In this document: positions 15,170 through 42,648 of the stretch, one piece after another
How the letters are laid out: every line of letters begins with the position of its first letter
Position numbering within the stretch: position 1 is the stretch's first letter
Virus record (IMG/VR): IMGVR_UViG_3300033076_001247
Location: 1 to 64,000 of that record
Length of the DNA stretch: 64,000 bases
Strand: one strand, 5' to 3'
Origin: a virus
Taxonomy: Duplodnaviria; Caudoviricetes
Translations under genes and position numbers: made by a program
Notes under the pieces: generated by a model
Database searches by the model: none
What the model saw: the letters and a program-made list of their open reading frames with translations, nothing else
What the model was told of the DNA's origin: nothing

Positions 15170-15663
15170 TTGGTAAGTATTACCGCACGGCCGGTGTCGG
15201 ACTGAAGCAGATTCCAGAGCGGCAGCACCTCGTCTCGGTTGACCCCGTGAGTCGTGAGCCAATGGCACCACTCAGCCAGCTTCTCGACGCGGCTCGTGAT
15301 GATGGTCCGCAGGCCGCGCTCGTGCCGGTTCCGCACCAGCATGACGAAGTCGTAAAGGACGCCGGGGTCGATGTACCCGTGCGCCTTGTAGAAAACGACG
15401 ACCGGCGCGTTCTGAACCCGGAGCATCTCGTCGTCCGACGGGATGCTCATGTTCGGTTCAATCATGTCGCACCAGGGCGCGCCGACCTTGTTGTCGGGCG
15501 TGAGGCTCGCCATGAGGTAGCGGGCGACAGCCGGCGCCGAGATGTCGGCCGGGTCGTCGAGCACGAGCAAGGTGCGGAGGGTGGGCGTCTCGACGAGGCG
15601 CTGAACGGCGCCCTCGGCGGCGCGGTGCAGGGGCGAGCGTGCTTTCGGGGCGATGAACTTCAT
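15166..15663 (-). CDS. Degenerate DnaC/IstB-like protein
   Basis: RHERGLRTIITS aligns with RHDNGRKTIITT of the neighbouring gene; no Walker A motif. Confidence 0.55.
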   Translation of the reverse strand: MKFIAPKARSPLHRAAEGAVQRLVETPTLRTLLVLDDPADISAPAVARYLMASLTPDNKVGAPWCDMIEPNMSIPSDDEMLRVQNAPVVVFYKAHGYIDPGVLYDFVMLVRNRHERGLRTIITSRVEKLAEWCHWLTTHGVNRDEVLPLWNLLQSDTGRAVILTK

Positions 15664-16424
15664 TCAGCGGACTCCTGCGTGTGGGTGGGTCGGATGTCGT
15701 CGCCCTTGCAGACAACGAAGCGGGTGGCGGTCGGGTCGGACAGGCGCGACATGAGGCTGTCGGTGTACCGCAGGTCCATGAACTGGTTGCGGTACTGGAC
15801 GGCCTGCTCGGGTGTGACGACCTTGGACGACCGGCGAAGGTTGGTCGTGATGATGGTCTTCCGGCCGTTGTCGTGGCGGTCGAGGATGAGGGAGAGCACC
15901 TGGTCGCTCGCCCAGTCGCCCGACTCGCGGCCGAGGTCGTCGACGACGAGCAGGTGAGCGTCGATGCAGGCGTCCCGCTTGGCGGTCCATCGGTCGCCGA
16001 CGGTGACGCGGGAGGCGTGGAGGAACTGGCAGACCTTGTGCTTTGCCATGTCCCAGAGCGACGGGTGGGCGAGGGGGTAGATGGCAGCGTAGGTCTTGCC
16101 ACGACCGGCCTTGCCGGCGAGGACGAGGGTGGCGAGCTCGGGGCGGGCGAGGAAGGCAGCGACAGCCTCGACGGCGGCTTGACTGCCCTCGTGACCGGGC
16201 AGGGCCGGGCAGAAGGCGGGGCCGGTCGCGATGGTCTCGACGAGGCGCTCGTTCTCGACACCGGCGAACCGGAGGCAGCCCCGGCGGCGGTCGGAGACGT
16301 CGATGGTGACGACGACGGGCTCGGGCCGAGCGACGGGCTCCGGCTCGGGCGGCATCTCGACGCGCTCTTCGAGTTCGGGGCCGGAGTAGTTTTCCCAGGG
16401 GGCGAGTTCGGACAGGGGCTTCAT
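15660..16424 (-). CDS. DnaC/IstB-like AAA+ helicase loader
   Basis: Walker A GKAGRGKT, Walker B LLVVDDLG, TIITTN. Confidence 0.85.
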   Translation of the reverse strand: MKPLSELAPWENYSGPELEERVEMPPEPEPVARPEPVVVTIDVSDRRRGCLRFAGVENERLVETIATGPAFCPALPGHEGSQAAVEAVAAFLARPELATLVLAGKAGRGKTYAAIYPLAHPSLWDMAKHKVCQFLHASRVTVGDRWTAKRDACIDAHLLVVDDLGRESGDWASDQVLSLILDRHDNGRKTIITTNLRRSSKVVTPEQAVQYRNQFMDLRYTDSLMSRLSDPTATRFVVCKGDDIRPTHTQESAE

Positions 16425-16448
16425 GGCGGGTTCCTTTCGGGCGGCGGC

Positions 16449-17486
16449 TTAGGCTTCGCCGGCCCAGAGGCCGTCGAGGTCGCGACCGGTGATGTGCTTG
16501 GAGGGTTGCGGGCCGGCGGACTGGACGACCTTGGCCTTGAGACCGGCGGCCTTCTGGGCGGCCTCGGGCGCGACGAGGGCTCGGATGGGGAGGTGAGCGC
16601 TGTACGGGTCGGTGTGCAGGGTCTCGAGCACCCAGACGAGCTCGTCGATGCCGCGCGCCTTGCGCTGCTGAAAAAAGAAGATCCGGTCTTCCTTCGTCAA
16701 CGCGGGCGGGAAGGGCGGCCGCTTGAGCTCGACGTAGCGGGCCACCCAGCGGTCGAGGTCGGCCGTGGCGGTCGGTTCGTCCTCGGGCTCTTCGGGGCGC
16801 TTGCGTCGACGGTCGGGCTTGCCGGTGGCCGGCAGGAGGCTTGCCTGTCCGGTGACGTCGACGACGGGTGTCGGGCGGGCGGGCGCTGCCGGCTGCATCG
16901 CCGTCGGCTGCGGGTCGGTCGTCTCTGCCAGCAGGAGGGGCGCCGGTCCGAGGTCGCCTTCCGCGCCGGCGTCAGCCGGCGAAGGTTCGGGAGAAGAGAC
17001 GAGAGGCGAGACACGAGACACGAGAGGCGAGAGACGAGAAGCGAGAGACGAGATACGAGAAGACGGATCATCGGCTTGCGTCTGCTTGCAGATGATCGCA
17101 GGTGCAAGCAGGGGCGTGCCGTTGCCGACAATGTCCTCCGCGTGCAAGAGTTGCGCGCCCTCGGGGCTCGGGTACTTGCTCTTGCCGGCGCGGACGTTCT
17201 GGTAGGTGTGCCAGTTCGAGAACCCGATAAACCTCGCGCCCTTGACCTCGTAGGCGTGCAGGATGTCGACCTCGACCAGCTTCGCGATCCAGGACAGGAC
17301 GTGCTGGTCGGTCACCTCGGGCTTGAGCGGGTAGGCTCGCCCCCGGATGACCGGCGGGCGGGCGTCGAACCGGCCGTAGTCGTCCGAGATGAGGAGGAGA
17401 CGGAAGAAGAACCGCTCCTCGTCGGCCGTGAGCTGGTCGATATTCGCGCTAACGAGAATGGCGTCCTTGATGATTCGGTTCGGCAT
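16449..17486 (-). CDS. Phage replication initiator
   Basis: N-terminal MPNRIIK...FFRLL..SDDYGRF winged-helix type, low-complexity linker with repeats, followed by a DnaC-like gene. Confidence 0.8.
   Translation of the reverse strand: MPNRIIKDAILVSANIDQLTADEERFFFRLLLISDDYGRFDARPPVIRGRAYPLKPEVTDQHVLSWIAKLVEVDILHAYEVKGARFIGFSNWHTYQNVRAGKSKYPSPEGAQLLHAEDIVGNGTPLLAPAIICKQTQADDPSSRISSLASRLSPLVSRVSPLVSSPEPSPADAGAEGDLGPAPLLLAETTDPQPTAMQPAAPARPTPVVDVTGQASLLPATGKPDRRRKRPEEPEDEPTATADLDRWVARYVELKRPPFPPALTKEDRIFFFQQRKARGIDELVWVLETLHTDPYSAHLPIRALVAPEAAQKAAGLKAKVVQSAGPQPSKHITGRDLDGLWAGEA
16999..17061. repeat. Nine tandem 7-bp RCGAGAN repeats, candidate replication-origin iterons
   Basis: ACGAGAG GCGAGAC ACGAGAC ACGAGAG GCGAGAG ACGAGAA GCGAGAG ACGAGAT ACGAGAA inside the initiator gene. 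Confidence 0.7.
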
Positions 17487-18081: not shown

Positions 18082-18387
18082 ATGCTCGGAGACGAACACA
18101 AGGCGACGGTCGACGGCTACGCCCGCTCGGTGCTCGAGGCATGGGCGAGCGACGGTCGGCCGATGGCGGAGTTCGCCGAGAGGGCAGGGCTGACGCCGCA
18201 GGCGGTCTCCCAGATACGGCTCGGCCAGTGGGGCGTCGGCATGAAGGGGCTGCGCGGCTTCTCGCACGCGCTTGGCGTCACGCTGTCGGACTTTGAGGAG
18301 CGCGCCCTCGCCTGGCACGCAGCGGGTCGGCCGCCGCTCGGGCCGGAGGCGCTGGCGGGTGTCAGCGTGCAGGGAGGTGGGAAGTGA
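18082..18387 (+). CDS. XRE-family HTH regulator (Cro/CI-like)
   Basis: AEFAERAGLTPQAVSQIRLG...ALGVT. Confidence 0.8.
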   Translation: MLGDEHKATVDGYARSVLEAWASDGRPMAEFAERAGLTPQAVSQIRLGQWGVGMKGLRGFSHALGVTLSDFEERALAWHAAGRPPLGPEALAGVSVQGGGK

Positions 18388-19148
18388 AGGTCGGCTTCGT
18401 CGCCTGCTCGTCGAGCAAGCTGACCCGCGCCGCCCCGGCGTGGCAACTCTACACCTCGCCGTTGTTCCGGCTGTCAGTTGCATACCTGACGCAGAAGGTC
18501 GGCGTCGACCGCTGGTACGTCCTGTCCGCGAAGCACGGGCTCGTCGCGCCGGAGACGGTCATCGAGCCGTACGACGAGACGCTGACGAAGCTCGGTAAGG
18601 CCGAGCGCGCGGCGTGGGGCGAGCGTGTCGCCGAGCAGATCTACGCCGAATGGCGGAAGTGCGGCACCGACTGGCGCATGCAGGTGCTCGCCGGCAATAG
18701 CTACTGCCAGCCGCTTCGCGCGGCGTTGAGCGCCAAGGTCAATCCGTTCAAGGTCATGCGCCACCTCGGCTTCGACGAGCCGCTCGACGGGAAGGCCATC
18801 GGCGAGCGGTTGCAGTGGCTGTCGAGCGAGCTCGGGCGCGACGACAATGCCGCGCGCAAGTCGGGCGACCTCGACGAGCTGATGCGGCAAGTCCACTGGC
18901 ATTACCCGTGGGGAACGGCGCGGGGGCAGTACGCGGTCGTCGACGGGGTGCCGGTGACGGTCTCGAAGCGAGGCTTGGAGTGGGCCGTCGAGGTCAAACG
19001 ACTGACCGGCGCCCCGATGATGGCGACGGCCGCGACGGGCAAGGACGCGAAGGCTGCGGCGATTCATGCGGTTCGCGCTGGCGCGTGGCTGGTAACGGGC
19101 TATCGGACGACCTGGCACGAGCCGGCGGTCGAGGGAGGCGACGAATGA
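18384..19148 (+). CDS. DUF6884-like protein
   Basis: VACSSSK...A..LYTSPLF...WYVLSAKHGL......PYD.TL. Confidence 0.75.
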   Translation: MKVGFVACSSSKLTRAAPAWQLYTSPLFRLSVAYLTQKVGVDRWYVLSAKHGLVAPETVIEPYDETLTKLGKAERAAWGERVAEQIYAEWRKCGTDWRMQVLAGNSYCQPLRAALSAKVNPFKVMRHLGFDEPLDGKAIGERLQWLSSELGRDDNAARKSGDLDELMRQVHWHYPWGTARGQYAVVDGVPVTVSKRGLEWAVEVKRLTGAPMMATAATGKDAKAAAIHAVRAGAWLVTGYRTTWHEPAVEGGDE

Positions 19149-19333: not shown

Positions 19334-19641
19334 AACCCATCACCTGGACCTTCCCGCACGGCCACGTTCGCGACGGGCGGATATCTCGGTTCGCCGGCAC
19401 GGCGTACGACGGGCGCATCGAGATCGAGATGGTCGGCTCGGCGCCTGACGGGTGGTGCGCGCTGCTGTACCGGCGCGGGTCGCCGCTGCCGGCGGTCACG
19501 CTGTCGATGTCGGGACCGTCGGTGGTGCCGCTGCAGAACGCGATGCAGGTCGTCGTCGAGCGACTGATGCGGGCCGAAGGCGCGGACGGCGTCATCGAGG
19601 ACGCGGACAACGAGAGGCTGGCGGCTCGGGGGATGCTGTGA
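19330..19641 (+). CDS. Hypothetical protein
   Basis: GTGA-coupled at both ends. Confidence 0.55.
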   Translation: MKPITWTFPHGHVRDGRISRFAGTAYDGRIEIEMVGSAPDGWCALLYRRGSPLPAVTLSMSGPSVVPLQNAMQVVVERLMRAEGADGVIEDADNERLAARGML

Positions 19642-20309
19642 CCGAGCGTAAGCTCCGCATCGGGTCGCTGTTTGCCGGCGTCGGTGGGTTCGACCTCGGC
19701 TTTGAGCGAGCGGGTTTTGAGACGGCATGGGCCGTCGAGATTGACGAGAAGGCGCAGGCCGTCCTACGGCTGCGGTTCCCGAGGGCCGAATTGCACGACG
19801 ACGTGACGAAGATCGGAGCGCACAACCTCGGGCCGGTCGACGTGATCACCTACGGTTTTCCATGCCAGGACCTCTCGGTCGCCGGCAAGCGCGCGGGCCT
19901 CGACGGCCAGCGCAGCGGACTTTTCCATGAAGCAGTTAGAGTTATTCGCGAGCTTCGGGCGCGCGACGGCAAGCCAGATATCGCCATCGCCGAGAACGTC
20001 CCCGGACTTTTCAGCAGCAACGCTGGCCGAGACTTTGCTGTCGTCCTCCAAACGCTGGTCGACGTCGGGGCGCGTGACGTCGCGTGGCGAGTGCTGGACA
20101 GCCAGCACCACGGAGTCGCTCAACGCCGCCGTCGCGTGTTCATTGTCAGCGATTTTGGAGGCGAACGCGCCGCAGAAATACTTTCTCTCGCCGAGGGCGT
20201 GCGCGGGGATTCTGCGCCGCGCCGCAAAACGAGGAAAGGCGCTCCCGCCGCTGCTGGAGCAGGCGCTCCGAGCAGTCTGCGAATCGACGGAACAGGGGGG
20301 GGGGATTAG
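19638..20309 (+). CDS. C5-cytosine DNA methyltransferase, alpha part (motifs I-VIII)
   Basis: SLFAGVGG, GFPCQDLS, ENVPG, QRRRRVF; stop codon right after the G10 tract. Confidence 0.9.
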   Translation: MTERKLRIGSLFAGVGGFDLGFERAGFETAWAVEIDEKAQAVLRLRFPRAELHDDVTKIGAHNLGPVDVITYGFPCQDLSVAGKRAGLDGQRSGLFHEAVRVIRELRARDGKPDIAIAENVPGLFSSNAGRDFAVVLQTLVDVGARDVAWRVLDSQHHGVAQRRRRVFIVSDFGGERAAEILSLAEGVRGDSAPRRKTRKGAPAAAGAGAPSSLRIDGTGGGD

Positions 20310-21024
20310 CGGCGCCGTGAGTTGCAAGTGGGCCAAAGGGACCGGCGGGCCTGCGGGCGACGAGTATCAGAACCTCGTCGCGACCGAGACGGTCGGCACC
20401 TTGTGCAGCGACACGCACCCTGGTGCGTACTCGGGTCAGGACGCCTACACGGGGCGGCTGGTGCCGATGAAGGCGAAGGACGAGACGGTCGCCTGTTACG
20501 ACTACCTCGGATCGCATGGTGGTGGCGTCGAGGTGGGCATTAGCCCGACGTTGAAACGGAAGGACGGCGTTGCGGTGACTGTCCCGGTTGCCTTCCGTAT
20601 CTACCCCGGCCAGCCGACAGAAGGACGTGCCGCTGAGTTGCATGCATGCGAGACGGACATAGCAAACGCCGTGACCGTGACCGAGCACGCGCGCTCAACC
20701 GACAGAGGAACGAGAGTCGTTTGCGCGACGGGCGACATCACCCACACTCTCGACGGCGCTCACGGTGCAACCGAAGACGGCACAGGCAGAGGCACGCCGA
20801 TTGTGCCAACCCCGCGCATGGCGGTGCGAAGGCTGATTCCCAGAGAGTGCTCAAAACTGCAGGGATTTTCTCCTGACTGGAACGCTGAGGGCGTCGACAA
20901 GGCGGGCAAGCGCATCGTCATGGCCGACTCGTCGCGGTACAAGCAGATGGGTAACGCAGTCACCGTCAACGTCGCGCAGGCCGTCGCGGAGCGCGTAGCG
21001 ATGGTGCTGGGAAGGCAGTCGTGA
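19927..21024 (+). CDS. C5 methyltransferase beta part in the +1 frame (overlap domain, variable region, motifs IX-X)
   Basis: MKQLELF...SLSAILE...KYFLSPRACAGILRRA...RRLIPRECSKLQGF...RYKQMGNAV. Confidence 0.85.
   Translation: MKQLELFASFGRATASQISPSPRTSPDFSAATLAETLLSSSKRWSTSGRVTSRGECWTASTTESLNAAVACSLSAILEANAPQKYFLSPRACAGILRRAAKRGKALPPLLEQALRAVCESTEQGGGISGAVSCKWAKGTGGPAGDEYQNLVATETVGTLCSDTHPGAYSGQDAYTGRLVPMKAKDETVACYDYLGSHGGGVEVGISPTLKRKDGVAVTVPVAFRIYPGQPTEGRAAELHACETDIANAVTVTEHARSTDRGTRVVCATGDITHTLDGAHGATEDGTGRGTPIVPTPRMAVRRLIPRECSKLQGFSPDWNAEGVDKAGKRIVMADSSRYKQMGNAVTVNVAQAVAERVAMVLGRQS
20295..20304 (+). repeat. G10 homopolymer at the alpha/beta frame junction
   Basis: ACA GGGGGGGGGG ATTAG. 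Confidence 0.85.
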
Positions 21025-30528: not shown

Positions 30529-31602
30529 ATGGCCGTCGAAACCAAGGAGCAGTTCCAGAACCGCGCGCTCGCTACCACCGCGACGAACGGCGCGACGCCG
30601 ATGCGTTACGAGGCGCCGGTCCAGGGCGTCAACACGCTCGCCTACGAGCCCACCAACCTCGACGAGGCGTTCCGCATGGCGCAGATCCTCGTCTCGAGCG
30701 GCTTGACGCCGCGCGGTGTCGACACGCCCCAGAAGGCGTTCCTCATCATGGCGCAGGGACGCGAGCTCGGCTTGAGCACGATGCAGTCGCTCGGCAACAT
30801 CTACGTCGTGGAGGGCAAGGTCTCGCTGTCCTCCGACCTGATGGCCGCGATGGTGCTCAAGAGCGCCGTCTGCGAGTACCTCCGCGTTATCGAGATGACC
30901 CCGGAGCGCGCCACCTACGCCGCGAAGCGAAAGGGCGGCGCCGAGTTCCGCTTCTCGTTCTCGTGGGAGGACGCCGTCAAGGCGGGCCTTACGAACCGGC
31001 CGAACTACAAGGCGAACCCGGCGGACATGCTGCGGCACCGCGCGTTGAGCAAGTGCGTCCGCGCCGTCTTCCCCGACGTCGTCGCCGGCCTGTACTCCCG
31101 CGACGAGGCCGAGGACATCGTTGACGTCACCCCGCGTCAGGTCATCGCCGAGGTCGTCCATGCTGCGGCCGAGACGGCGACGCAGCCCGCGCTGCCCGCC
31201 GCGACGAAGGTCCGCAAGCGCACTCCCGCGCAGCCGGTCTCCGCGCCCGTCGTCCAGGTGCAGCCGGCGCCCGAGCCCGAGCCGGTCGTCGAGGAGACCG
31301 TCGCGCAGGAGCAGATCGAGGACGCCGCGCCCGTCGCCGGTCCGCACCGCAACGACGACGGCGCCATCATCGACCCGCTTACGGGCGAGGTGCTCGACGG
31401 CTTTGAGGCCGGCGCGTTCGCCACCGTCGGCGACAGCACGACCGAGGAGGCGTTGACCGCCGCGCAGCGCACCGTCTCGGACGCGAAGCCGATGCTCTCG
31501 CCGAGCCGCTACTCCGCGCTCGCCTGGACGTACTTCTGGGCGCGGAAGACCGTGCTCGGCAAGGACGCGCCCGCCCAGTACCAGCAGCTCCGCGCAATCT
31601 GA
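30529..31602 (+). CDS. RecT-like single-strand annealing protein
   Basis: GLSTMQSLGNIYVV.GK...AGL......YP..ML..RA-like segment, FPDVVAGLY; next to an exonuclease and SSB. Confidence 0.8.
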   Translation: MAVETKEQFQNRALATTATNGATPMRYEAPVQGVNTLAYEPTNLDEAFRMAQILVSSGLTPRGVDTPQKAFLIMAQGRELGLSTMQSLGNIYVVEGKVSLSSDLMAAMVLKSAVCEYLRVIEMTPERATYAAKRKGGAEFRFSFSWEDAVKAGLTNRPNYKANPADMLRHRALSKCVRAVFPDVVAGLYSRDEAEDIVDVTPRQVIAEVVHAAAETATQPALPAATKVRKRTPAQPVSAPVVQVQPAPEPEPVVEETVAQEQIEDAAPVAGPHRNDDGAIIDPLTGEVLDGFEAGAFATVGDSTTEEALTAAQRTVSDAKPMLSPSRYSALAWTYFWARKTVLGKDAPAQYQQLRAI

Positions 31603-35402: not shown

Positions 35403-36080
35403 ATGCAGAAGATCAACTTCGTCCGACTCAGCGAGATCGCCAAGTGGCCGAGGAATCCCAAGGATCACGACCTTCCATCCATCGAAGCCAGCATCCGGCG
35501 CTTCGGCTTTATCGACCCGCTGGTGCGTGACGAGAAGACCGGGCGGCTCGTCGCCGGCCACGGTCGCGCCGAGGCGCTTGAGCGGCTCAAGAAGGCGGGC
35601 AAGGACCGTCCGTCGCGGGTCGAAGTCGCGCCCGACGGCGAGTGGCTGGTGCCGGTGCTTGGCGGCGTGTCGTTTGAAAACGAGACCGACGCCGAGGCGT
35701 ACCTCATCGCGTCGAACCGCCTGGTCGAGACCGGCGGCTACGACGACACCCTGCTGCGCGCCATTCTTGCGGACCTGCGGGATGCAGACGCCCTCGGAGG
35801 TACGGGCTTCAGTGAAAAGGAGGTCGACGCTCTCCTCAAAGCCGCCGCGAAGGACGCGCCGACGCTGGCCGAGGGCTTCTCGGACGAGGCCGACGCGACG
35901 ATGGAGGCGCTCGACGGCGAGGACGACGACGTCCGCACGCTGGTACTGACCGTCGAGGCCGACGAGTACCAGGGCTTTGTCTCGCGCCTGCAAGCCGTGA
36001 TGCGGACCTGCAAAGGCGCGTCGTGGACCGATGCCGTCAAGGCGCTCCTCGACCGATGGGAAGCAGAGTCCGATGGGTAG
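35403..36080 (+). CDS. ParB/Srx N-terminal domain protein
   Basis: PRNPK.H...SIRRFGFIDPLV....LVAGHGR. Confidence 0.85.
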   Translation: MQKINFVRLSEIAKWPRNPKDHDLPSIEASIRRFGFIDPLVRDEKTGRLVAGHGRAEALERLKKAGKDRPSRVEVAPDGEWLVPVLGGVSFENETDAEAYLIASNRLVETGGYDDTLLRAILADLRDADALGGTGFSEKEVDALLKAAAKDAPTLAEGFSDEADATMEALDGEDDDVRTLVLTVEADEYQGFVSRLQAVMRTCKGASWTDAVKALLDRWEAESDG

Positions 36081-40177: not shown

Positions 40178-41281
40178 TCAGACGCGCACGGGCATGATGA
40201 CCGACAGCGTCTTCGCGCTCGCGACCGTCTCGCCGTGCGGCAGCACGAGAATCGGCTCTTCCTTCGCCACGAGGCGCAGGTCGACCGCCTCGCCGCCGAT
40301 GGCCTTCACCGCCTCGCGCAAGTAGCCGGGGTTCAGTCCGATGTCGCTCTCGGTGTCCTTGCCGACGACCGCCGCGTCGTGCGTGACGACGAGCTCGCCG
40401 AGGTCGGGTTCTCGAGCCGCGAGTGTGATCGACTGCCCGGCGACCGTCGCCTGGACGCGCAGCGACGTCCCGCCGATAGCCCGCGCCTGCTCAGTCGTCT
40501 CGACCAGAAGGCCGCTGTCGACCGTGACCGTCTGGCCCTCGCCGACTGCCTCGACCACGCTGCGCCAGTCGGGGTGCTGTCCGTCGATGAGGCGCATCAC
40601 GAGCGCCTGGCTGTCGTCGGCGTAGTGGATCGCGTTCGCCTCGAACGTGAATCGACCTTCGGCTCGAGCGCAAGCGCGGAGCATCTTCGTCGCGTCGCCG
40701 GCCACAATGACCTGCGCGTCCTCGCCGAGCGTCAGCCCGACCGGCCACGCCGTGCGCGTGAGCGCCAGCCGGTGCCCGTCGGTCGCCATCAACGCGAGCC
40801 GGTCGCCGTCGCGGGACAGACTCACACCACACAGGGCATACCGCGTCTCGTCATGGCCCACCGCGTGAGCGACCTTCTCAAAGGCCGTCGAGAGCCGGTC
40901 CCACTGCGGGCACAGGTCGTCTGCCTTGCAGGGCACCGAGATGGCCGCGCTGTCGGCGTCGATGAGAGGCACTGCGAACCGAGCAGCTCCGCTCTGAACC
41001 GTCAGGCGCCGGGCCAGAGACGGGCAATCAAGGCTCGTCGTGTCCCCGTGCAGCGCGCCGACCACCGCCGCGAAGTGACGCAGCGGGACGACGGCCTGCA
41101 ACGTCGAGATGCCGCCCGAGACGCCGAGCCGCCGCTCGTACCAGTCGCCGATCACGTTGACGCTCACGCGCAGCGTGTCGCCGTAGCCCTCGAGGCGGAC
41201 CTGCGTCGTCCCGTCCGTCCGTCCCACGCGCAGCCCGAGGGCGAGCGCCTCCTGCAACTCTTCCGTCCGAACCTTCGTCAT
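40178..41281 (-). CDS. dnaN: DNA polymerase III beta sliding clamp
   Basis: DETRYALCGV, ATDGHRLA, RLIDG..PD...V, N..YL.EA, VIMPVR. Confidence 0.9.
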   Translation of the reverse strand: MTKVRTEELQEALALGLRVGRTDGTTQVRLEGYGDTLRVSVNVIGDWYERRLGVSGGISTLQAVVPLRHFAAVVGALHGDTTSLDCPSLARRLTVQSGAARFAVPLIDADSAAISVPCKADDLCPQWDRLSTAFEKVAHAVGHDETRYALCGVSLSRDGDRLALMATDGHRLALTRTAWPVGLTLGEDAQVIVAGDATKMLRACARAEGRFTFEANAIHYADDSQALVMRLIDGQHPDWRSVVEAVGEGQTVTVDSGLLVETTEQARAIGGTSLRVQATVAGQSITLAAREPDLGELVVTHDAAVVGKDTESDIGLNPGYLREAVKAIGGEAVDLRLVAKEEPILVLPHGETVASAKTLSVIMPVRV

Positions 41282-42648
41282 TCGCTGTCTCCCAGGTGCT
41301 CCACGCGCACCTCGTAACCCTCGGCCTGATATGCGAGGCGTCGAGCGCGCGCGTGCGCCTCAAGCCATCGCTGGCCCCTGTCGTTGAACTCCCACACCAC
41401 GCAGGAGCTCTTCCCCTCCGCCTTTCGCAGCCCGCGCCCGACGCGCTGAATGGCCGCGATGGTCGACTGTCCGCCGGCCGCAATGACGACCGACCGAAGC
41501 GCCGGAATATCGACGCCCTCTTGAAAGATGACCGAGCAGACGAGGACGTCGATGCGCCCTTCGACAAGCTGTGCGATGGCGGCCTCTCGCTGCTCGGTCG
41601 TGTGCGCCCCGTGAACGTAGGCTGCTCGGATGCCGGCGCGGGCGAAGGCGCGCATCAAGACCTGCCCGTGCTCGACCGCCTGGACGAAGACGAGCGCGGG
41701 CTTCTCGGAGCGCCGCACGGCCTCGACGACGAGCGCGTTGCGCCGCGCCGAATGCACGACGAGCCGGTCATAGACCGTCGGCCACGTCGCGTCGTCGAGC
41801 TCGTCCTGCCAGCAGTCCGCCATGAGGATGAGCGGCTTCGCGAGCACCTCGCGCTCGACGAGCACCTCGGGCCGCATGCGGTAGATGACGGGGCCGGTCG
41901 CACCGACGACGAGCGAGGACTTCCGGTCGCCTCGAGCGAGCGGCGTTCCCGACAGGCCGATGCGATAGCGGGCGTTCGTCGCGACGCCCATCACCGTCGT
42001 GAAGGTCGACGCCGCGAGAGCGTGCGCCTCGTCAACGATGACGCCGTCGACCGCCTCGAGCAGCGCCCGCGCCTCGGCGTCGCCGTTCGCGAGGCGAGCC
42101 GCGAGCGTCTGGAAGGTCGCGACTGTGAACCGACGGGGACGCCACCCGCTCTCGCCGACCTTGCCTGCGGTCTCGCCCGTGAACCTCTTGAACGACTCGG
42201 CGGTCTGGTTGAGCAACGACAGCCGGTGAACGAGGAACAGCCAGCGGGCCGTCGGAAACGAGGCAACGATGCTCGAAGCGGTCGAGGTTTTCCCAGATGC
42301 GGTCGGGAGCCAGAGGATGCCGCGCTCGCGGGCGCAAACGGCCTCCAAAGCGGCTCGCTGGTAGTCGCGCAGCCAAGACACGTCGACGCTCTCGTCGCGC
42401 GCCGGCGAGGCCGGGCGGAGGTCGAGGACATCGAGCGTGCGGAGCTCCTTCGACGCCCGCGACTGGACGATGGGCAGGAAGCCGCTTGGGAACTCGCCGG
42501 CGGTCTCGTCCAGCAAGCACATCGGCCGCTCGACGCCGGTCGCCCCGACTGTGCGGAACGTGAGGAGTTGCCGCAACCAGTCGCGCTCGTAGTCGTCCGC
42601 TCGGACGATGCGGCACGACACGTTGCGGAACTCGACCTGCACGCGCAC
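41278..42648 (-). CDS. Superfamily 2 (DEAH-like) helicase
   Basis: LRDYQ, PTASGKT, VDEAH, LSGTP, EGVDIP, QRVGRGLR. Confidence 0.9.
   Translation of the reverse strand: MRVQVEFRNVSCRIVRADDYERDWLRQLLTFRTVGATGVERPMCLLDETAGEFPSGFLPIVQSRASKELRTLDVLDLRPASPARDESVDVSWLRDYQRAALEAVCARERGILWLPTASGKTSTASSIVASFPTARWLFLVHRLSLLNQTAESFKRFTGETAGKVGESGWRPRRFTVATFQTLAARLANGDAEARALLEAVDGVIVDEAHALAASTFTTVMGVATNARYRIGLSGTPLARGDRKSSLVVGATGPVIYRMRPEVLVEREVLAKPLILMADCWQDELDDATWPTVYDRLVVHSARRNALVVEAVRRSEKPALVFVQAVEHGQVLMRAFARAGIRAAYVHGAHTTEQREAAIAQLVEGRIDVLVCSVIFQEGVDIPALRSVVIAAGGQSTIAAIQRVGRGLRKAEGKSSCVVWEFNDRGQRWLEAHARARRLAYQAEGYEVRVEHLGDSE

Follow-up and report, generated by a model that had tools for sequence, protein, structure and literature searches.

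Can a phage cytosine methyltransferase be tied to the replication machinery by a short peptide that is written in an overlapping reading frame of its own gene? This question is raised by a viral locus in which the second frame of a C5-cytosine methyltransferase gene opens with MKQLELF. In eukaryotes DNMT1 is tethered to PCNA, and the beta-clamp-binding motif of bacteria is reportedly QL[S/D]LF, a consensus said to go back to Dalrymple in 2001. A recent review gives the canonical clamp-binding motifs as Q-phi-x-[L/M]-[F/L] or Q-phi-x-[L/M]-x-[F/L], with a free middle position and with QLxLF as the form of highest affinity (PMC11139829).

The locus lies in a 68% GC viral contig, of which we analyzed 64,000 nucleotides (hereafter the window; positions 1 to 64,000 of IMGVR_UViG_3300033076_001247, a 74-kb IMG/VR record). 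Here, we describe the organization and conservation of the overlapping frame, trace its N-terminal peptide through relatives in phages and plasmids, and weigh clamp docking of this peptide against other explanations.

A C5-cytosine methyltransferase gene read in two frames

Positions 19638-21024 hold a single C5-cytosine methyltransferase gene that is read in two frames. The alpha ORF (19638-20309, + strand) extends from a GTG start, which overlaps the stop of the upstream gene (GTGA), to a TAG stop at 20307-20309, and matches positions 2-160 of Pfam PF00145, which span motifs I-VIII (E 1.8e-49). The beta ORF (19927-21024, + strand, 365 aa) lies in the +1 frame, overlaps alpha by 383 nt and begins MKQLELFASF; its C-terminus matches PF00145 positions 272-322, which span motifs IX-X (E 1.9e-9), and the Pfam match together with a structural model places these motifs at 20815-20997 (+). 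Motifs I-VIII and IX-X of a C5 methyltransferase are therefore both present, on two chains encoded in different frames. The start codon of beta, ATG 19927, is the first ATG, GTG or TTG past a stop in the +1 frame and the sole ATG among the first 130 codons of the beta frame, and the claim of the sequence-only reading that an ORF starting MKQLELF opens here inside a C5-methyltransferase gene is confirmed. Two genes 5' of the methyltransferase, at 18384-19148 (+), lies a gene for a DUF6884 protein (Pfam E 1e-37).

Beta is composed of five segments, all on the + strand. The N-terminal peptide, MKQLELFASFGR, opens with the motif codons M-K-Q-L-E-L-F (19927-19947, with QLELF at 19933-19947). It is followed by a low-complexity, Ser/Thr/Pro-rich linker (residues 8-71, 19948-20139), in which S, T, P, G, A and Q make up 67% of residues 8-46; by a core that we term ORF-X (20143-20286), which reads SLSAILE..KYFLSPRACAGILRRAAKRGKALPPLLEQAL and is encoded over alpha motif VIII and tail; by a variable region; and by motifs IX-X. 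An AlphaFold model of beta was poor overall (mean pLDDT 50.8), with confident prediction of three helices at residues 73-119, within the ORF-X core, and of the motif IX-X region. Residues 1-71 had no secondary structure and a pLDDT below 50, although the alignment was shallow and low confidence of this kind is not proof of disorder. A fold search with the beta model returned only unrelated helical proteins (best Z 3.7), a profile of the ORF-X core had no match among PDB sequences up to E=10, and the ORF-X part has no model in NCBIfam or Pfam. Presumably the core is kin of the segment that follows motif VIII in single-chain enzymes.

Conservation of the overlapping frame in phages and plasmids

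The ORF-X core has the consensus SLSxILE..KY[FW]LSPKACAGILRRAxKRGKxLP and matches 3823 cluster representatives at E<=1e-3, as well as PHROG 16143. At a minimum of 103 loci, with GC contents of 38-70%, the core stands in the +1 frame of a gene for a motif VIII-bearing methyltransferase. Carriers among annotated and cultured phages include mycobacteriophage Omega (gp127), P1 and P7 (dmt), Caulobacter phage BL94, Roseobacter phage CRP-821, Sinorhizobium phage NV1.1.1, Pseudanabaena phage Pan4, and Vibrio and Providencia phages, and hundreds of P1-like plasmids also carry it. In annotated relatives, and in loci where a G tract discussed below has nine residues (G9), the second frame is fully nested and 135-192 codons long. 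The nested ORF of the G9 loci is about 140 aa (143 aa) and reads MKQLELF...TEQGGGLAEP followed by a stop in L016, and MRQLELF... in L014. Omega gp127 (L023:1375-1848) and P1 dmt (NC_005856; L024:2249-2737) are each annotated as a single gene and each contain a nested +1-frame ORF of about 160 aa; that of Omega starts MTFDQLDLF (N-terminal peptide MTFDQLDLFPSA), and that of P1 starts MWSLQMQLTTNG, without a clamp-type motif. In the literature, our coverage of which was incomplete, we did not find the nested ORF of this methyltransferase family described.

Substitution patterns set the overlap apart from the rest of the gene. Substitutions at the three alpha codon positions were distributed as (0.16, 0.12, 0.47) upstream of the overlap and as (0.28, 0.18, 0.29) inside it, and the shift was the same in 6/6 pairs compared. 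This pattern is the signature of two constrained frames. The GC3 of alpha is 0.82 outside the overlap and drops to 0.62 within it. Judged by these patterns and by its wide conservation, the +1 frame is a real overlapping gene under purifying selection.

Conserved motifs of alpha leave recognizable images one frame over, both in the window (19638-20309) and in related loci: FPCQDLS appears as SPA[KR]TS, WENVPG as GKTSPE, and the alpha tail ILFE.EG.RG..PRR as FLSPKACAGILRR. Such strings are frequent in database methyltransferases because the conserved motifs themselves yield them.

A G tract at the alpha/beta junction

Alpha ends at a run of ten G residues (G10; 20295-20304, +), at which full-length G9 relatives read through into ISGAVSCKWAKG. 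In the single-chain relatives P0012 (502 aa, with 91% identity to alpha) and P0021 (446 aa), the sequence ...IDGTGGG runs on into ISGAVSCKWAKGTGGPAGDE. The tract is G10 in the window, L018 and L003, and G9 in L016/L017 (the loci of P0012); as at a contingency locus, otherwise similar copies have homopolymers of unequal length, and the frame that is read switches with it. The alpha/beta split thus depends on G10, and in the G9 single-chain relatives QLELF heads only the 143-aa nested protein.

The G10 splits of L018 and L003 come from independent assemblies whose alpha sequences are only 82-88% identical, and a relative of 46% GC, L021, is split at the same tract. Since the same-tract split recurs in these three loci, the split state is heritable and recurrent rather than a one-off error. 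A second lineage breaks at another G-run, with a tract that differs between L013 and L014. In L021, a nine-G run is kept at the same alpha/beta junction (L021:1276-1284); its retention in a low-GC genome suggests that the homopolymer itself is maintained. In P0125, P0152, P0161, P0226 and similar database proteins, and in one locus (L009:2500-3300), the motif I region is fused in frame to the ORF-X frame and motifs IV-VIII are skipped, and some of these fusions return to motifs IX-X. Frame changes at G-runs seem to generate several chain combinations in this methyltransferase family.

Selection on the N-terminal peptide

The alpha codons beneath the motif, CAT GAA GCA GTT AGA GTT ATT, form the most AT-rich stretch of the alpha gene, and GC3 is 0.33 in the 15 codons at 19911-19955 against 0.82 in the alpha-only part and about 0.85-0.95 in the other genes of this phage. 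AGA, GTT and ATT are exactly the codons that give L-E-L-F one base on while holding V-R-V-I in alpha. Across 10 sequences of the window's clade, M1, Q3, L4, L6 and F7 of beta are invariant and position 5 is E, A or D. Alpha codons that flank the motif vary synonymously, and the motif codons change only where the beta peptide stays preserved: L018 has CAA CTC GCA TTA TTC (Q L A L F), which alpha pays for with V->T and V->I, L003 has TTC->TTT, silent in beta and R->C in alpha, and L013 has GAG->GAA, silent in beta and V->I in alpha. In L072 (GC 48%) the same register reads MKQLDLF, and the residues downstream are otherwise unrelated. QLxLF is thus conserved among orthologues while its flanks diverge. 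The sequence-only reading had taken the AT-rich codons as a sign of selection on the +1 frame, and these beta-synonymous, alpha-nonsynonymous changes bear it out.

The motif goes beyond chance: the window's 85 GC3-supported ORFs contain a single canonical clamp pattern, which is internal, and none at either end of a protein. That single match is QASLL at residue 214 of a replication initiator (16449-17486, -).

More distant relatives open the +1 ORF elsewhere, and across the loci the motif takes no fewer than nine registers with respect to alpha. Its Gln lies 14 codons before the motif IV Pro-Cys (PCQ) in Omega (MTFDQLDLF), and 9 or 8 codons before it in MQLSMF, MQMSMF, (L)EQLTLF, ..NQLSLF, QLTFW and QSTFW. 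In other relatives it lies 19, 18, 15, 12, 10, 8 or 5 codons before motif VI (ENV), in the peptides MKQLELF, ..SQSELF, MQLTIF, MQLGLF, MSQMELF and MSLQLAMDF, MQYDLF, M..QDSLF and MDCTQLSLF. The alpha sequences below the motif are mutually unrelated (HEAVRVIRE, YVTNGAFPRW, NAARTFCGA, DAIDDLRR, DDLRSVGFVP, DATFDVLV); by this comparison, the motif tracks the N-terminus and not the alpha frame. A stop closes the ancestral upstream position in the window (..ST*SPTVFHARTS, where * is the stop); 27 codons further on the ORF opens anew, and QLxLF is there once more. The check proposed with the sequence-only reading, conservation of QLxLF in the +1 frame of homologues, therefore came out in its favor, with a wider spread than had been expected, and distant relatives recreate the motif at other N-terminal positions.

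We compared motif counts with those in 927 other ORFs of the same loci under the same rule. A loose Q-x-x-hydrophobic-hydrophobic peptide stands within 12 codons of an in-frame start in 62/103 loci (60%; 6.1% of control ORFs), and a canonical Q-phi-x-[L/M]-[F/L] or hexamer form in about 30/103 (about 29%; 1.8% of controls), counts that overstate the number of independent events because the loci share ancestry. Repeated selection is better gauged by the nine or more registers. Of 105 core-bearing database proteins, 22 show Q..[LIVM]F among residues 1-12, whereas about 0.4% would be expected for a 12-residue window taken from other parts of these proteins. Some 40% of relatives carry no motif, among them P1, Caulobacter phage BL94, and the Vibrio and Providencia phages. 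The abundant QLTFW and QSTFW forms are non-canonical, and ahead of motif IV the hydrophobic pair stems in part from a frame shift of codons for a hydrophobic beta-strand of alpha (NTN -> TNN).

The starts that precede the motif also carry translation signals. A Shine-Dalgarno-like 4-mer lies at -17 to -5 of 54/63 motif-proximal starts (86%), compared with 150/1198 positions in the same genes (13%; Fisher p about 2e-36), and such sites are often built from rare AGG or AGA arginine codons in alpha. The window copy has a weaker context: CAG CGC AGC GGA CTT TTC C (19910-19926, +) contains a weak GCGGA where relatives have GGAG/AGGAG. At 19914-19916 the window has CGC (Arg) and five relatives have CGG/AGG, a difference of one base that removes the GGAG/AGGAG site. 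Translation from ATG 19927 is plausible in view of the upstream sites of relatives; the window's own copy is without such a site. Register spread, Shine-Dalgarno sites and the clade-wide invariance of Q, L, L and F together argue that the N-terminal Q-phi-x-L-F peptide has been selected, that relatives truly initiate at the +1-frame start, and that MKQLELF marks a true N-terminus; on this comparative evidence we regard all three points as established.

A candidate clamp-docking peptide

QLELF, at beta residues 3-7, matches the canonical pentamer Q-phi-x-[L/M]-[F/L] and its strongest form, QLxLF, and relatives carry the further canonical forms QLDLF, QLSLF, QLGLF, QMELF and QLAMDF. The candidate motif resembles known beta-clamp-binding motifs, especially that of Hda, in being a five-residue Q-L-x-L-F at a terminus predicted to be unstructured, in its variable middle position and in its conservation amid divergence; the Hda motif, QLSLPL, sits at a disordered N-terminus (PMC11139829). 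It differs in that QLELF is a candidate motif only, that its carrier is a methyltransferase subunit and that it is encoded in an alternative frame. The clamp partners listed in that 2024 review include no methyltransferase (PMC11139829).

We propose that the N-terminal peptide would act as a short linear motif on a flexible tail and dock in the hydrophobic pocket of the beta clamp, either the host DnaN or that of the phage. Docking would bring the recognition module of the methyltransferase to freshly replicated DNA, and new phage DNA would be methylated near the fork, ahead of host restriction enzymes. In the G10 copy, the tethered module would comprise the ORF-X core, the variable region and motifs IX-X. 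In G9 relatives, it is the 143-aa nested protein that would bear the tag, and this protein would need to join the full-length enzyme. Clamp docking is the leading mechanism because QLELF, the forms found in relatives and the predicted-unstructured N-terminal tail all fit the traits that the review ascribes to clamp-binding motifs; for binding, and for replication-coupled methylation with it, we put the chances at about even. As a mechanism for the candidate motif the tether is plausible and unproven.

The phage does encode a clamp. The DnaN-like protein that the sequence-only reading had noted at 40178-41281 (- strand, 367 aa) is full-length and real: it contains PF02767 and PF02768, its residues 63-366 can be aligned with solved beta clamps, and it conserves the partner-binding pocket, with the pocket residues TDGHRLA and the C-terminal MPVR kept. 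The tie that had been drawn between the peptide and the phage's own clamp found no support in a comparison across genomes. Phage DnaN was found in 0/5 other motif-bearing records and in 1/5 comparison records, which gives no association between motif and phage DnaN. The comparison record with DnaN is Sinorhizobium phage NV1.1.1, whose ORF-X starts MSLQLAMDF. The clamp gene in the window is probably incidental, and the usual partner would be the host clamp. We also sought nested methylase and mini-clamp operons of the Skatevirus type among the ORF-X matches and found none.

Replication and recombination genes lie at 15660-17486 (-), 30529-31602 (+), 35403-36080 (+) and 41278-42648 (-), and include a replication initiator, a DnaC-like loader, RecT, a ParB-like protein and an SF2 helicase adjoining dnaN. 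Since no DNA polymerase was found among ten window ORFs scanned against PHROGs, the phage clamp may work with the host polymerase.

The strongest alternative accepts that the peptide is selected and assigns it a partner other than the clamp, with the peptide docking beta or ORF-X to the alpha chain or the full-length enzyme, or to another host factor. The motif is conserved and N-terminal, a split enzyme requires an assembly interface, and the want of co-occurrence with phage DnaN fits it as well. Many variants are moreover non-canonical: in the commonest, QLTFW, QSTFW and QLTFL, position 4 is Phe or position 5 is Trp, others (KSTFW and EKLTLF) have no Gln, and some look like motif I (LSLFAGA, LTLFAGV). 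A Trp at the last position weakens binding of Pol III alpha's internal motif (PMC11139829). However, the canonical high-affinity forms recur in several registers, the peptide sits on a tail modelled as unstructured, far from the folded core, and the heterodimeric C5 methyltransferase M.EcoHK31I, whose beta chain is read from a second frame inside alpha, does not need the first 42 beta residues for its activity in vitro (PMC2836561). The last point, from the one characterized precedent, speaks against an assembly role for the N-terminus, and that dispensability in vitro leaves room for a role in vivo. We consider a non-clamp partner rather unlikely, though it deserves more weight than the two readings that follow.

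A further possibility is that the motif has no function as a peptide and is a side effect of the nucleotide needs of an internal start, AT-rich and weakly folded, combined with the constraints of alpha. The Shine-Dalgarno-like site and the ATG are clearly selected, the start region folds slightly less stably than the gene average (z about +1.3, not decisive), and hydrophobic alpha codons shifted to +1 often come out as F, L or W. Nucleotide needs of this kind sit poorly with L018, which swaps TTA GAG for the GC-richer CTC GCA and still encodes Q-L-x-L-F, and with the low-GC loci L072, L021 and L059, which keep the Gln and the spacing where AT-richness is uninformative. They also leave the recurrence of one peptide pattern above nine or more unrelated alpha contexts to coincidence, when control ORFs with start codons show it at just 6% (loose) and 1.8% (canonical). 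An explanation of this type is improbable.

Least probable of all is that beta is an artefact, arising where the G10 of a single-chain methyltransferase holds a one-base error or was recently hit by an inactivating mutation, with the MKQLELF frame unexpressed: although G9 full-length relatives (P0012, L016/L017) read straight through, the record is a metagenomic contig and GGAG is missing at the window start, the split recurs in the independent assemblies L018 and L003 and in the 46%-GC L021, and the existence of the +1 ORF does not depend on tract length because ORF and motif are conserved in G9 loci too.

Relation to known methyltransferases and implications

In split C5 methyltransferases of the M.AquI type, the alpha chain carries motifs I-VIII and the beta chain motifs IX-X. 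The G10 state described here divides the motifs between its chains in exactly this way, and differs in that the overlap is 383 nt long and dual-coding rather than a few codons, and in that close relatives have single-chain forms; M.AquI-type enzymes are mentioned in PMC3404938. In gene layout the closest known system is M.EcoHK31I, where a second polypeptide is likewise encoded in an overlapping frame of a C5 methyltransferase gene. The present family differs from it in keeping motif IX in the main frame and in using the overlapping frame for a distinct three-helix segment, which, depending on the poly-G tract, ends at about 143 aa or runs into the variable region and motifs IX-X.

The idea of a methyltransferase tied to the replication machinery is shared with DNMT1-PCNA and with replication-associated plasmid methyltransferases, which co-purify with Pol I, and for which an intermediary such as the clamp was suggested by the authors (PMC7736820). 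The function proposed here would be analogous to both, and the likeness is one of analogy only; the enzymes differ, as do the motifs, DNMT1 having a PIP box and the plasmid enzymes being without a defined motif. We found no bacterial or phage methyltransferase with a clamp-binding motif in the literature, which we covered incompletely.

Two consequences hold independently of the clamp question: a family annotated as single genes is both widespread and dual-coding, and its hidden +1-frame product bears a selected N-terminal tag. The broader proposition is that a very large phage and plasmid C5-methyltransferase family, to which P1 Dmt and Omega gp127 belong, hides a +1-frame subunit, and that in many of its members this subunit has a true beta-clamp-binding N-terminus; from the comparisons above we hold this to be possible, at somewhat less than an even chance. 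If true, it would be the first prokaryotic counterpart of DNMT1-PCNA coupling, and it would depend on poly-G tracts whether the enzyme half with DNA recognition and motifs IX-X is part of the module tethered to the clamp. Should the peptide bind the clamp, phage cytosine methyltransferases would form a new class of sliding-clamp client, and anti-restriction methylation would be coupled to the fork, which would account for phage DNA gaining its protection in time.
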